From NCBI GenBank assembly GCA_030549845.1, contig JAUQQN010000001.1, forward strand, positions 180,001-212,000: a DNA stretch of 32,000 bases, in the 5' to 3' direction. Under the pieces are notes generated by a model that was not told where the DNA came from, made no database searches, and saw only the letters and a program-made list of their open reading frames with translations. Each line of letters starts with the position of its first letter. The first letter of the stretch is position 1. This stretch comes from Patescibacteria group bacterium. Its GTDB lineage: Bacteria > Patescibacteriota > Minisyncoccia > UBA6257 > HR35. The position numbers were made by a program, and so were the translations under genes. This document shows, piece after piece, positions 19,773 through 22,582 of the stretch.

Positions 19773-19805
19773 GTTTTTGACTTTTTTAATTTAATTTACT
19801 TTTTA

Positions 19806-19834
19806 ATTATAAAAAATTTCAAAAATAATATCAA
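19806..19834 (-). promoter_or_regulatory. Candidate sigma-70-type promoter for nusG-rplK
   Basis: On the minus strand: TTGATA (19834-19829), a 17-nt spacer, then TATAAT (19811-19806), about 34 nt upstream of the nusG ATG. AT-rich DNA produces such matches by chance. Confidence 0.35.
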
Positions 19835-19843
19835 TATTCAATT

Positions 19844-19864
19844 TTTCGTAATCAGGTTACGAAA
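19844..19864. repeat. REP-like palindrome copy A (TTTCGTAATCAGGTTACGAAA)
   Basis: 8-bp stem TTTCGTAA/TTACGAAA around the 5-nt loop TCAGG. Identical to copy E. Confidence 0.85.
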
Positions 19865-19935
19865 ATCTCTGCTTACTTTGTTATAATTTGTTTACAATAT
19901 TTTATAATTTGATTTATATTTATAATGTTTTCGTA

Positions 19936-19956
19936 TTTCGTAATCAGATTACGAAA
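19936..19956. repeat. REP-like palindrome copy B (TTTCGTAATCAGATTACGAAA)
   Basis: Same stem with loop TCAGA. Ends immediately before the ATG at 19957. Confidence 0.85.
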
Positions 19957-20529
19957 ATGGAAATTTTTCATATTTTCACACGAGGAGTAGAAGGAAGAGA
20001 GATTTTTAAAGACGAGGAGGATTATTTTAGATTTATCCATGATTTATATGAATTTAATAATGAAGAGGTTTCATCAAGTGCATCTTATAAATTTCAACAA
20101 ACAAAAGATTCAACTAAAAGAACAAATAATGAAAAAAGAAAATTGATAGTAAATATACATGCTTTTTGTTTAATGAAAAATCATTATCATCTTCTTTTAA
20201 CTCCTAAAACAGGAAGTTCTATATCAAAGTTTATGCATAGGTTGAATAAAGGTTATTCAAGATATTTCAATATTAAATATAATAGGAGGGGAACTTTATT
20301 TGAGAGTAGATATAAAAAGGTAAAATTAGAAAAAGAATCTCACTTTATTCACATATTATATTACATTCACCTAAATCCCCTTGATTATTACGACATAAAT
20401 TGGAGGAATGGTGAACTGAAAAATTTTAAAGAAGCTATTAATTTTTTAAATAATTATCGTTGGAGTAGTCATTTAGATTATTGGGGAGATAAAAATTTTC
20501 CTTCTATTACTCAGAGAAATTTTTTCTAA
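19957..20529 (+). CDS. REP-associated tyrosine transposase-like protein (Y1/HUH, IS200-like superfamily); C-terminus possibly frameshifted
   Basis: HUH motif in CLMKNHYHLLL, the block GTLFESRYKKVKL and a tyrosine helix LYYIHLNPL, matching the RAYT/Transposase_17 pattern. The start is placed at the ATG at 19957; the TTG at 19888 only adds a low-complexity extension. The -1 frame stays open to 20639. Confidence 0.75.
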   Translation: MEIFHIFTRGVEGREIFKDEEDYFRFIHDLYEFNNEEVSSSASYKFQQTKDSTKRTNNEKRKLIVNIHAFCLMKNHYHLLLTPKTGSSISKFMHRLNKGYSRYFNIKYNRRGTLFESRYKKVKLEKESHFIHILYYIHLNPLDYYDINWRNGELKNFKEAINFLNNYRWSSHLDYWGDKNFPSITQRNFF

Positions 20530-20665
20530 AATTTTTTAAAGGCACTAAAGGATATAAAGAATCAATTATTGAGTGGCTAAAAAGCATAAACTATAAAAAA
20601 GATAAAAACTTGCGCCAGATTTTAGTAAAGCTAGAATAAATATTTCAATCCAAAAATCTTTTTCT

Positions 20666-20686
20666 TTTCGTAATCAGATTAAGAAA
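20666..20686. repeat. REP-like palindrome copy C (decayed)
   Basis: TTTCGTAATCAGATTAAGAAA: one substitution relative to copy B (C to A at 20682) breaks a stem pair. Confidence 0.7.
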
Positions 20687-20706
20687 GTAAAGAATCTTCT
20701 CAGTTC

Positions 20707-20727
20707 TTTGGTAATCAGATTAAGAAA
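20707..20727. repeat. REP-like palindrome copy D (decayed)
   Basis: TTTGGTAATCAGATTAAGAAA: two substitutions relative to copy B. A further TTACGAA half-site lies at 20732-20738. Confidence 0.6.
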
Positions 20728-20770
20728 ATTATTACGAATAAAATAAAATTTGCTCATCAGAAACGGAGGT

Positions 20771-20791
20771 TTTCGTAATCAGGTTACGAAA
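20771..20791. repeat. REP-like palindrome copy E
   Basis: TTTCGTAATCAGGTTACGAAA, identical to copy A. Confidence 0.85.
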
Positions 20792-20807
20792 GATTAATTT
20801 TCCCGGT

Positions 20808-20828
20808 TTTCGTAATCTGATTACGAAA
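20808..20828. repeat. REP-like palindrome copy F (inverted orientation)
   Basis: TTTCGTAATCTGATTACGAAA is the exact reverse complement of copy B. It lies 16 nt from copy E, giving an inverted doublet. Confidence 0.85.
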
Positions 20829-20855
20829 TATTGATATTAATTACGAAATATTGAT
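20820..20855 (+). repeat. Direct repeat of ATTACGAAATATTGAT (2 copies, 20-nt period)
   Basis: An identical 16-mer occurs at 20820-20835 and 20840-20855. The first copy overlaps the 3' arm of copy F. Confidence 0.8.
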
Positions 20856-21029
20856 TATGTTTAATCTGGGTTGTGGATATTCAGTTAAAAAATGAAAAAA
20901 ATTTATTGAAATTTATGAGAAAATTAAGAACAAGGGACAAAACCTCTTATCATTCGGGCAATCGACTCAAGTGGCGTAGCAGGAGAAAGCAGTGTAGAAA
21001 TAATAAATGATCCTGCAGAGCTCGAAAGG

Positions 21030-21566
21030 TTGGCTCGAGATTTTCTGCTTAAGTATGCGTGTACATGGGACGGTCGAGTGGTCAGATTCGGTGATCGAGA
21101 AGACGGGCCAATTGCTAAGCCCGTTAAAGTTTACCTGTGGCCTGAAGTAATTCCTTATCACAGTATAGTAGAAAAAGCCTGTGAATTCTGGACAAGATAT
21201 ACTGGTATCCAATTCCAAGTAATAGATGTACCTACACTTCCAACTCAGATTCCATTACCTTGCATAGTAATTCTAGGAGAGCTTAACAAGTCGACCACAG
21301 CTGCGGCAATCACAAAGAAGCTATATGACTCTGCAGTTGCTCTAAAGGTTGTAGAAGGTGATATCACCCTTTACCAAGGTTGGCTGGGAGCTACCGAGGA
21401 CTGGAGGAAATTAATCCTTATTCACGAACTAGGACATGTTTTACTCACCGACCAACACACAGACAACAGAAGCATAATGGATGCACCAGCCTGGCCATAT
21501 TTTCACACATTCATACAGAAAGCGACTTGGATTTTATACCGCATGAACCCAGGAGATCCACTGTGA
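21030..21566 (+). CDS. Metzincin-like zinc metalloprotease domain protein (possibly 5'-truncated or a pseudogene)
   Basis: HELGHVLLTDQH (HExxH plus a downstream His) is followed by NRSIMD, a candidate Met-turn. The ORF has only a TTG start at 21030 and no signal peptide, and the frame is open back to 20928 without an ATG or GTG. GC is much higher than the backbone. Confidence 0.55.
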   Translation: MARDFLLKYACTWDGRVVRFGDREDGPIAKPVKVYLWPEVIPYHSIVEKACEFWTRYTGIQFQVIDVPTLPTQIPLPCIVILGELNKSTTAAAITKKLYDSAVALKVVEGDITLYQGWLGATEDWRKLILIHELGHVLLTDQHTDNRSIMDAPAWPYFHTFIQKATWILYRMNPGDPL

Positions 21567-21590
21567 AGTTTTAATTTATACATTATACAC

Positions 21591-21620
21591 GTCCCCTTAA
21601 AAGGGGACCTGTATTTTTAT
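21591..21620. terminator. GC-rich hairpin between convergent genes (likely bidirectional intrinsic terminator)
   Basis: GTCCCCTT-AA-AAGGGGAC (21591-21608, 8-bp stem) followed by CTGTATTTTTAT. It sits between the stop at 21566 (+) and the stop at 21617 (-). Confidence 0.6.
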
Positions 21621-22582
21621 TCTTCAGTAATTTCTAAAACTAAACGAGTTTTATTAGGTGAATCCCAAATTTTAACTGGTACTGTTAGTTCAGAAGTAAC
21701 GGTTGCTACTCCTGCTCCACAATCTTGCCACCCACTTCTCGTTCTGCACTTAAATTTACCTTCGCTACTATCATAATACATCATACCTTCTTGAGGATTA
21801 GAAGGTTGAGAAGAAGGAGCTAACCTTATTGCTCCAACTACCTCTAATTTAGCTTGAGGATTAGTTGTTCCTATACCTACATTATCCGAAAAGTAACTCA
21901 CAGCGTTTGGATTGACAGTTACTATGTTATATTTTGAACCATAAGCTCTCACGCCAGTTCCGTTAGGACCATATGCTACTCCATATACCCCATATGCGTA
22001 AGAAGAGGTTGCCCATCCATATACTCCAATACTTAAATATTTTTGGCTATTAGCGCTACCTATAACTCCATAAGTATAAGTAGCATTTGGAGTTATTAAA
22101 GAACTTCGTAAACCTGTAATTGTAGTGGTTGCATCATTAGTAGAATAGTAAATATCTAATTTAGCTTGAGGATCAGCTGTTCCTATACCAACTTTACCTC
22201 CAAATGGTTGAAGAATGATGTTTCTATTATCTCTAGTATATATTGTTAAAGAATTATATCCATAAGAAGAATTGGAAGAAGCATACATTAAGCCTCCTAT
22301 ATAAGTACCAGCTGAATTGATTAATTTTATATATTCGTAATTGTTATTCGTATCTACGAAACCAAATTTTAAGTTTTGAATCTGGACATTCCAACTTGTA
22401 GATGAAGGAGAGAGATTATTTCCTGATAATCTCCAATAATTAACATATGAAGGGAAGCCTCCTGGAGCTATACATATTGGTATATTTTGTGCTTGAGCAT
22501 TTAATATTGAATTGAATAATGAAAAAATAGAGATTAAAAATAATGAGACAAAAAAGGCAAAAACTATTTTATTTTTATCCAT
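21617..22582 (-). CDS. Secreted Gly/Ser/Thr/Tyr-rich protein with duplicated tail-fibre-like motifs
   Basis: Signal peptide MDKNKIVFAFFVSLFLISIFSLFNSILNAQA|Q. Two copies of VGIGT(A/T)(D/N)PQAKL(D/E) lie 104 codons apart. C-terminal MMYYDSSEGKFKCRTRSGWQDCG block with a Cys pair. Confidence 0.7.
   Translation of the reverse strand: MDKNKIVFAFFVSLFLISIFSLFNSILNAQAQNIPICIAPGGFPSYVNYWRLSGNNLSPSSTSWNVQIQNLKFGFVDTNNNYEYIKLINSAGTYIGGLMYASSNSSYGYNSLTIYTRDNRNIILQPFGGKVGIGTADPQAKLDIYYSTNDATTTITGLRSSLITPNATYTYGVIGSANSQKYLSIGVYGWATSSYAYGVYGVAYGPNGTGVRAYGSKYNIVTVNPNAVSYFSDNVGIGTTNPQAKLEVVGAIRLAPSSQPSNPQEGMMYYDSSEGKFKCRTRSGWQDCGAGVATVTSELTVPVKIWDSPNKTRLVLEITEE
21843..21880. repeat. 38-nt intragenic repeat, copy 1
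   Basis: TCTAATTTAGCTTGAGGATTAGTTGTTCCTATACCTAC matches 22155-22192 at 35/38 positions. The offset is 312 nt (104 codons). Confidence 0.85.
22155..22192. repeat. 38-nt intragenic repeat, copy 2
   Basis: TCTAATTTAGCTTGAGGATCAGCTGTTCCTATACCAAC, see copy 1. Confidence 0.85.

Follow-up and report, generated by a model that had tools for sequence, protein, structure and literature searches.

REP-associated tyrosine transposases (RAYTs) are the textbook example of a domesticated bacterial transposase; their role for the cell is still obscure, and their study has been complicated by the hundreds of dispersed repetitive extragenic palindromes (REPs) that accompany them. Dispersal in many copies is part of the definition of a REP. 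The left-end hairpins of insertion sequences (ISs) of the IS200 type also control expression. In this study, a stretch of 32,000 nucleotides (nt) from a Patescibacteria group bacterium (assembly GCA_030549845.1, contig JAUQQN010000001.1, positions 180,001 to 212,000; hereafter the window, in which coordinates are given) was analyzed, with a focus on one Y1/HUH transposase gene next to nusG and the short palindromes around it. Our findings suggested, with a fair degree of probability, that this locus is a REPtron-like unit, that is, a chromosomally fixed, vertically inherited gene for a RAYT-type (class-2 TnpA-Y1) HUH single-stranded DNA (ssDNA) endonuclease together with cognate, private hairpins. 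On present evidence, the unit is neither a proliferating IS nor a classical REP family, the latter because the hairpins have not colonised the genome.

Class 2 of the TnpA-Y1 enzymes is defined by a Y---NP motif, and a gene flanked by its cognate hairpins is called a REPtron (Quentin et al. 2018, PMC6006769). In Table 1 of that paper, the signature of subclass 2.1 is NH[YF]H, Y[IV]HLNP, and an SS motif in the proximal tail of a protein of ca. 230-240 amino acids (aa); no hairpin or REP-like structure was described near these genes, and their distal tail resembles a helix-turn-helix (HTH; Bac_DnaA_C, HTH_23, or HTH_28). This subclass corresponds to Group 1 of Bertels and to TIRYT, and it is present in low copy without dispersed REPs. 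Quentin et al. further described REPs inside tnpA only for subclass 2.4 (Cyanobacteria/Bacteroidetes), at another place in the protein than that reported below, a GT[AG]G foot on canonical REPs, and an IS200 TnpA of ca. 150 aa with a Y---Q motif, encoded by multicopy genes that are ca. 99% identical. Abundant flanking 16-mers were found in RAYT Groups 2 and 3 only by Bertels et al. (2017). A full-text search of Quentin et al. found no mention of Patescibacteria or the candidate phyla radiation (CPR), and Patescibacteria were not mentioned in the passages of Bertels (2017) and Di Nocera (2013) that were consulted. Our literature search returned no paper linking RAYTs or Y1_Tnp to Patescibacteria, which is not proof of novelty.

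Six copies of a 21-nt palindrome, TTTCGTAATC-W-GRTTACGAAA, four of them intact and two decayed, were arranged together with two half-sites around the Y1/HUH gene. The search pattern TTTCGTAATCWGRTTACGAAA matched exactly at 19844, 19936, 20771, and 20808, with one mismatch at 20666 and with two at 20707, reproducing the intact and decayed copies that an initial annotation, made from the sequence alone, had listed; the half-sites that it had placed at 20732 and 20841 were located within 1 nt, at 20731-20738 and 20840-20847. Its statement that the motif occurs nowhere else in the 32 kb was also borne out, as no further match was found in the window even when 3-4 mismatches were allowed, and the number of chance matches expected from shuffles was 0.01.

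Upstream of the gene, the hairpin U2 (TTTCGTAATCAGGTTACGAAA, 19844-19864; exact match, ssDNA folding energy (dG) -6.9, z -6.4) lay between divergent nusG and Y1 promoter-like sites as the core of a left inverted repeat (19838-19865), and the 28-nt arm of this repeat was 93% complementary to 20807-20834. The second upstream hairpin, U1 (19936-19956; exact match, DNA dG -6.7), was a perfect 10-1-10 palindrome that immediately adjoined the ATG at 19957. Downstream, the decayed copy D1 (20666-20686), 26 nt past the stop codon, had one mismatch and a broken stem and was not stably folded (z -1.4), while the decayed copy D2 (20707-20727) carried two mismatches in the window and only one in strains with an intact gene. 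These were followed by an isolated 3'-arm half-site, ATTACGAA (20731-20738), and by the intact hairpins D3 (20771-20791) and D4 (20808-20828), both exact matches that folded as ssDNA. D4 was the core of the right inverted repeat (20807-20834) and the sole copy with a central T, hence inverted relative to the other copies, and it was able to pair with D3 as one long REPIN-like doublet of ca. 22 bp (dG -29.7, z -3.7). A repeat of the 3' arm and its flank (ATTACGAAATATTGAT, 20840-20855) contained the second half-site, again ATTACGAA, at 20840-20847. This 16-nt repeat (20820-20835 and 20840-20855) sat within a 20-bp indel polymorphic between strains, the insertion being present in the window and in contigs L065 and L066, and absent from L002 and L003, in the alignments. 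Folded as ssDNA, the four intact copies were stable (dG -6.0 to -6.9 kcal/mol, z -3.6 to -6.4), and D1 and D2 were not stable hairpins. With two copies upstream, four downstream, D4 inverted, and the D3-D4 doublet, the arrangement was that of a REPtron; the 5' flanks (CAATT, TCGTA, TTTCT, GAGGT, and CCGGT) lacked a GT[AG]G foot. Rfam and PADLOC returned nothing over threshold, with microRNA and YenS matches far under their gathering scores.

In three lineages (L045:7814-7850, L010:3944-4000, and window 20820-20855), the 3' arm of a downstream hairpin and a few flanking bases were repeated in tandem behind the hairpin, and each of these repeats began at the boundary between the loop and the 3' arm. 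Such a starting point may mark the point of cleavage, or may reflect slippage at a palindrome.

The gene (19957-20639, forward strand) was recognized as a class-2 TnpA-Y1 (RAYT-like) HUH gene by Pfam Y1_Tnp, by its motifs, and by Foldseek. Its 0-frame open reading frame (ORF; 19957-20529) contained both NHYHLLL and YIHLNP, as the initial annotation had read them, and the motifs of the protein were NHYH (HuH), YYIHLNP (Tyr), and YRWSS (tail). The profile search that the annotation had proposed gave 42.5 bits for Y1_Tnp, above the gathering score of 23, placing the protein in the Y1/HUH superfamily. The best-scoring NCBIfam model was NF047646 (REP_Tyr_transpos) at 48.9 bits, below the curated cut-off of 80 for a RAYT equivalog, while the IS200 model reached 14.8 bits. 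For the AlphaFold model (mean pLDDT 67, core 85-90), the best match in the PDB by Foldseek was 4ER8 (4er8_A), the E. coli TnpA-REP bound to a REP hairpin, and the next-best were TnpA-hairpin complexes of IS608 and ISDra2 (2XM3 and 2VJV were among the fold matches). A sequence search of the PDB gave only weak ISDra2 matches (E 0.03); the relation was visible through the fold search. The Pfam scan found no HTH domain in the protein. The Y---NP motif, the difference in score between the two NCBIfam models, and the best structural match to 4ER8 together supported a RAYT-type rather than an IS200-type Y1/HUH enzyme, as judged from the sequence and the predicted structure.

The window copy of this gene is frameshifted, which the initial annotation overlooked. 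The gene does not end at 20529; the stop there results from a 1-nt deletion, and the real gene extends to 20639. The intact protein, P0001, is 227 aa long with a tail of ca. 85 aa, and the window protein was 98% identical to it. Strain alignment and three-frame translation placed a T6 run followed by C and TAA at 20520-20529 on the forward strand (T6 at 20520-20525, 0-frame stop at 20527), where other strains have T7; the -1 frame ran on to 20639 and gave the P0001 sequence exactly (RNFF-LKFFKG). T7 alleles were present in L002, L003, and L065 and occurred in SRR21619491, SRR21619498, and SRR27730019, and the T6 allele was also present in L066 (SRR21619497), an independent Logan assembly, so the frameshift is probably real and polymorphic. 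The two alleles coexisted in one accession series (SRR21619491, SRR21619497, and SRR21619498), which makes homopolymer phase variation at the T run conceivable, as is recoding at T-TTT-TTC, the formal -1 slippery heptamer directly before TAA. The window allele is either inactive or dependent on a -1 slip for full-length protein.

The initial annotation also missed that the gene belongs to a very large, conserved Patescibacteria family. This family comprised 3,102 clusters at 90% identity (E <= 0.001), and in the 50%-identity library 166 representatives were found at E <= 1e-30 and 4,368 at E <= 1e-10. The 120 listed homologs were nearly all 220-235 aa long (a few, 209-259 aa) and 52-63% identical to the window protein, P0001 (98%) excepted. 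Among these listed homologs, all that were named were Patescibacteria (Paceibacterota, Wolfebacteria, Yanofskybacteria, and Minisyncoccia), in line with the CPR-like host that had been proposed. An alignment of 22 members showed a mean column identity of 64%, invariant HuH, YYIHxNP, and YRWSS motifs, and one hypervariable loop between helix A and strand 2 that was disordered in the model. No relatives were found among the viral contigs scanned, and there was no sign of phage carriage. The window locus is one frameshifted member of a large, apparently undescribed family of RAYT-like genes in Patescibacteria with private, co-evolving hairpins.

When the window was compared with seven further lineages (L004, L007, L010, L011, L035, L045, and L055), the gene was bracketed by a locus-specific palindrome in all eight, at distances of 0-113 nt from the ATG and 1-28 nt from the stop. 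The palindromes were TAATCTGGCGTCC-TCA-GAGGACGCCAGATTA in L011, TTTACGTAAT-TCG-ATTACGTAAA in L007, TTACGTAA-CCTGA-TTACGTAA in L035, TCTTCGGACGT-CCG-ACGTCCGAAGA in L055, TAAGGAC-ATCGCAA-GTCCTTA in L004, GTACGAC-ATCGCAA-GTCGTAC in L010, and TCTTGAC-ATCGCAA-GTCAAGA in L045. The upstream copy ended 0-50 nt before the ATG in the seven further lineages, abutting it in L007 and L035 as U1 does in the window, and in four lineages the downstream hairpin began 1-4 nt past the stop. An additional, in-frame copy was present within the gene in seven of the eight lineages; it lay +146 to +157 nt from the ATG, in the hypervariable loop, where it set the loop peptide (KDIASPY, NDIASRT, LDIASQD, and SDVRRPN, for example); the clade of the window had no internal copy. 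The loop could be delimited in 90 of the 120 listed homologs, with DIAS (GACATCGCAAGT) in 28 and related patterns in 13 more, and the variable-loop peptides of those 90 look hairpin-encoded.

A second, different palindrome was observed ca. 90 nt upstream of the Paceibacterota homolog at L004:9880-9900 (CP129473.1) and L005:338-356, downstream of tRNA-like sequences as judged by eye. It read TCGGACATCAGACGTCCGA in L004, where it was imperfect, and TCGGACGTCAGACGTCCGA in L005, resembling the L055 type TTCGGACGTCSGACGTCCGAA. L004 and L005 may therefore each have two types of hairpin at the locus.

Covariation was analyzed for 25 hairpins in alignment A3. Pairing was observed in 81.5% of cells, compared with 56% in shuffles (none of 500 reached the observed value) and 34-44% when the partner was slid. 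Changes on both sides were found in 10 of 11 stem pairs, and the stems of different lineages differed by compensatory changes. Loops were common to lineages with unlike stems (ATCGCAA in L004, L010, and L045; TCAGA in the window and L011), and copies within one locus differed by 0-2 nt, or 4 nt in one case. These sequence patterns showed selection for dyad symmetry combined with homogenisation within a locus.

The hairpins were confined to the locus of the gene. No copy was found outside it at up to 4 mismatches in 166 kb from nine loci, including ca. 10-kb flanks of the seven other lineages; there were likewise none outside 19800-20900 in the 32 kb of the window. When metagenomes were scanned with a pattern that matched both the window and the L007 motifs, the 161-kb contig of the L007 organism showed a single exact site, and other contigs of that metagenome within the scanned collection showed none; of the 33 loci returned, only L035 and L037 adjoined a family gene, the rest being unrelated single sites. 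The GTDB species representatives contained a single exact match, a chance-level occurrence on an Aenigmatarchaeota contig without a Y1 gene. The initial annotation had proposed a REP-RAYT pair. The RAYT-type enzyme and the REPtron layout were supported, and the REP part was not: no dispersed copy was found in the sequence scanned and the GT[AG]G foot was absent. The protein also scored below the RAYT cut-off.

Two further motifs were returned in these scans without a Y1 gene. The sequence TTTCGTAATCCGRTTACGAAA, which is the window motif except for its central C, occurred at two intergenic sites ca. 80 kb apart on one contig, L033:3693 and L038:58 (FLOH01000029.1, 594 kb, ca. 34% GC), and no Y1 gene was present in the flanks fetched; this pair could be due to chance or could be a genuinely dispersed relative of the window motif. 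Eight marine metagenome contigs of 56-65% GC (L012, L017, L019, L022, L027, L029, L034, and L042) shared ATTACGTAATCWGATTACGTAAT with similar flanks (TCTCA/TCAGG ... CAAAG/TAAAG/TGGAG) and no Y1 gene nearby; this resembles a conserved site of the operator type from an unrelated lineage.

The gene itself was found at a fixed position. The window unit adjoined nusG-rplK-tmk in L065 and L066 too, and the neighbours were unchanged for P0082 across at least 24 contigs of many samples and for P0047 across 15 contigs. Two Yanofskybacteria kept the gene in the same neighbourhood (CTP_transf_like, RNase_H_2, UvrD, and PPIase), with Y1 proteins that were 73.7% identical compared with 54-73% for the syntenic neighbours. 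One fixed locus across strains and samples, together with YIHLNP, agreed with the low-copy, non-IS character of class 2. The same context in all assemblies, the Y---NP motif, and a 227-aa protein did not agree with IS200/IS605, and the ordinary IS200/IS605 element that the initial annotation had considered does not apply to a unit found at one fixed locus by nusG in three further assemblies. Because position was fixed, synteny kept, and divergence housekeeping-like, the pattern across these sequences is that of a domesticated host gene and not of an IS. An element boundary at 19834, the shared start of L002 and L003, was considered and rejected, as the homology of L065 and L066 was uninterrupted into nusG.

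Among described systems, the E. coli TnpA-REP (RayT/YafM; subclass 2.2, 4ER8) shares with the window protein the Y1/HUH fold and the Y---NP motif, and the E. coli REPtron is likewise a single chromosomal gene with several cognate hairpins on both sides, some of them inverted doublets. However, E. coli REPs have a GTAG foot and hundreds of dispersed copies, whereas in the window family the GT[AG]G foot was absent and dispersed copies were not found; the E. coli protein is 165 aa long, in contrast to 227 aa with a ca. 85-aa tail and a score below the NCBIfam RAYT cut-off here. By its motifs, the window family may be likened to subclass 2.1/Group 1/TIRYT, which it matched in signature, length, low copy, and absence of dispersed REPs. 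It differed from subclass 2.1 in its conspicuous hairpins and in having no Pfam HTH tail. Some TIRYTs are flanked by terminal inverted repeats, forming TIRYT-TIRtrons (Quentin 2018; Di Nocera 2013; Bertels 2017); the repeats share GGGGWSAS there, and GGGGWSAS was absent from the window locus. In subclass 2.4, a cognate hairpin is likewise found in frame inside the gene of the enzyme, in a peripheral loop, but the copy in the window family lies before the HuH motif, at a near-constant distance from the ATG, and the hairpins are not dispersed. The TnpA of IS200, IS608, and ISDra2 has the same fold, with hairpins beside the gene ends that are read as ssDNA structures in those systems; unlike the ca. 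150-aa, multicopy IS200 TnpA with its Y---Q motif, the window family had Y---NP, a fixed locus, and housekeeping-like divergence.

By this comparison, the protein of a REPtron-like unit would bind its hairpins in single-stranded DNA, such as that of the lagging-strand template, and would cut beside or within them through a 5'-phosphotyrosine link before rejoining the ends, like E. coli TnpA-REP and IS608 TnpA. Such cutting and rejoining, or copying, or gene conversion, could homogenise the copies within a locus even as lineages diverge. The same activity could explain the extra copies, the half-sites and 3'-arm duplications, and the small indels downstream in the window, L010, and L045. Several points weigh against this interpretation. 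Cleavage of the hairpins is inferred by analogy with IS608, ISDra2, and TnpA-REP, and a dimeric binder of double-stranded DNA would give the same covariation, which leaves the single-strand hairpin unproven by covariation. The canonical GT[AG]G guide of REPs was missing, and the relative orientation of the copies varied across lineages. The window copy was frameshifted and without an internal hairpin, and the system may be decaying at this locus. The source genome was scanned over 32 kb of a 302,595-bp contig, and the taxonomy of the family rests on the named homologs, the cluster names of distant representatives being almost entirely uninformative.

The main alternative, which we regard as unlikely, is that the hairpins are mainly cis-regulatory rather than substrates for cleavage. 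They could be duplex operators for autorepression that the protein binds as a dimer, perhaps with its helical C-terminal tail, as the perfect dyad symmetry would fit and as the HTH-like tails of subclass 2.1 relatives (Quentin 2018) and the position of U2 between divergent promoter-like sites would allow. They could also be stem-loops in mRNA that mask the start codon and that confer stability or termination at the 3' end, in keeping with the abutment of a hairpin on the ATG in the window, L007, and L035 and with the downstream hairpins just past the stop in four lineages. When folded as RNA, U1 formed an extended stem that enclosed the AUG (dG -13.1, z -2.6). A promoter-like site (TTTACA-18-TATATT, 19891-19920, forward strand; 10/12 in a consensus scan) lay between U2 and U1 and would put U1 in the 5' untranslated region; such sites were no more numerous in the region than in shuffles, making this weak evidence. 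Intrinsic termination by the downstream hairpins was rejected, as no T-tracts follow them. The protein had no Pfam HTH, and stems that vary freely around conserved loops fit structure-specific recognition better than base-specific recognition of a duplex. Regulation alone would also leave the copy in the coding sequence and the half-site duplications unexplained. A regulatory role is compatible with most of the data and does not exclude a REPtron-like unit, as the ends of IS200 serve both roles, and the hairpins beside the start and stop codons probably restrain mRNA expression as well.

A genuine REP-RAYT system, with the hairpin dispersed through the rest of the genome and spread by the enzyme, would account for the six copies, the REPtron-like layout, and the REPIN-like doublet D3-D4, and only 32 kb of the 302,595-bp contig was visible. 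We nevertheless consider it improbable, given that copies were absent outside the locus both in these 32 kb and in the flanks of the seven other lineages, that the 161-kb contig of a relative had one exact site, and that the sole match among GTDB representatives was in an unrelated archaeal contig without a Y1 gene. The GT[AG]G foot was lacking as well, and for RAYTs of this signature (subclass 2.1, Group 1) an absence of REPs has been reported. Still less probable is an autonomous IS200-like insertion sequence, kept at low copy in small genomes, with the outer hairpins and inverted repeats as its ends. The compact hairpin-ORF-hairpin unit, the 93% complementarity of its 28-nt inverted repeats, the differing genomic context of distant lineages, and the fact that both L002 and L003, which are Logan contigs, start a short way into the left repeat's interior side, at 19834, would suit such an element. 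However, the unit was at the same locus in all strains and samples, with synteny and housekeeping-like divergence between the two Yanofskybacteria, and it had Y---NP in place of the Y---Q of IS200. An internal copy of an end would harm an IS, and the homology between strains extended ca. 95 nt past the right repeat, so that the strain difference does not fall at the end of an element.

Beside the locus, window 20934-22100 was a segment of 35-47% GC in a genome of ca. 27% GC, beginning 78 nt past the last repeat of the hairpin cluster. At the junction 20933/20934, the sequence of strains L002 and L065 carries a lipoprotein gene in place of this segment, and contig L066 ends; the segment is therefore a strain-variable and probably acquired island. 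It contained an orphan ORF (21030-21566) with a HELGH zinc-protease-like motif, a weak Matrixin match, and only 2 homologs among 5.8 billion proteins. A 321-aa protein encoded on the reverse strand at 21617-22582, the 3' half of its gene in the island, had an N-terminal hydrophobic segment, a repeated GIGTxxPxAKL[DE][IV] motif, and no Pfam match. The island as a cargo tied to the Y1 gene was rejected, since the only distant homolog (P0122, L067) had no Y1 gene nearby.

Beyond the window, it is possible, and we suggest it tentatively, that much of Patescibacteria carries a closed-loop RAYT system, in which a vertically inherited Y1/HUH enzyme has as its sole substrates its own three hairpins, before, inside, and after its gene. 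If so, the concerted evolution of the hairpins would be the footprint of their in vivo copying by the enzyme. Such a system would represent a minimal or ancestral REP-RAYT state in genomes whose compactness leaves no room for dispersed repeats, kept for a host function such as ssDNA processing at the replication fork. The hairpin within the gene, which at a fixed position dictates a loop of the protein, is an unusual case of DNA structure constraining a coding sequence. In this family, enzyme and hairpin would be seen to vary together at one locus across a very large natural collection of sequences, so that the rules of hairpin recognition would be directly readable and could be tested with short oligonucleotides. 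The family would also extend RAYT-type systems to Patescibacteria, where they would be free of dispersed repeats.

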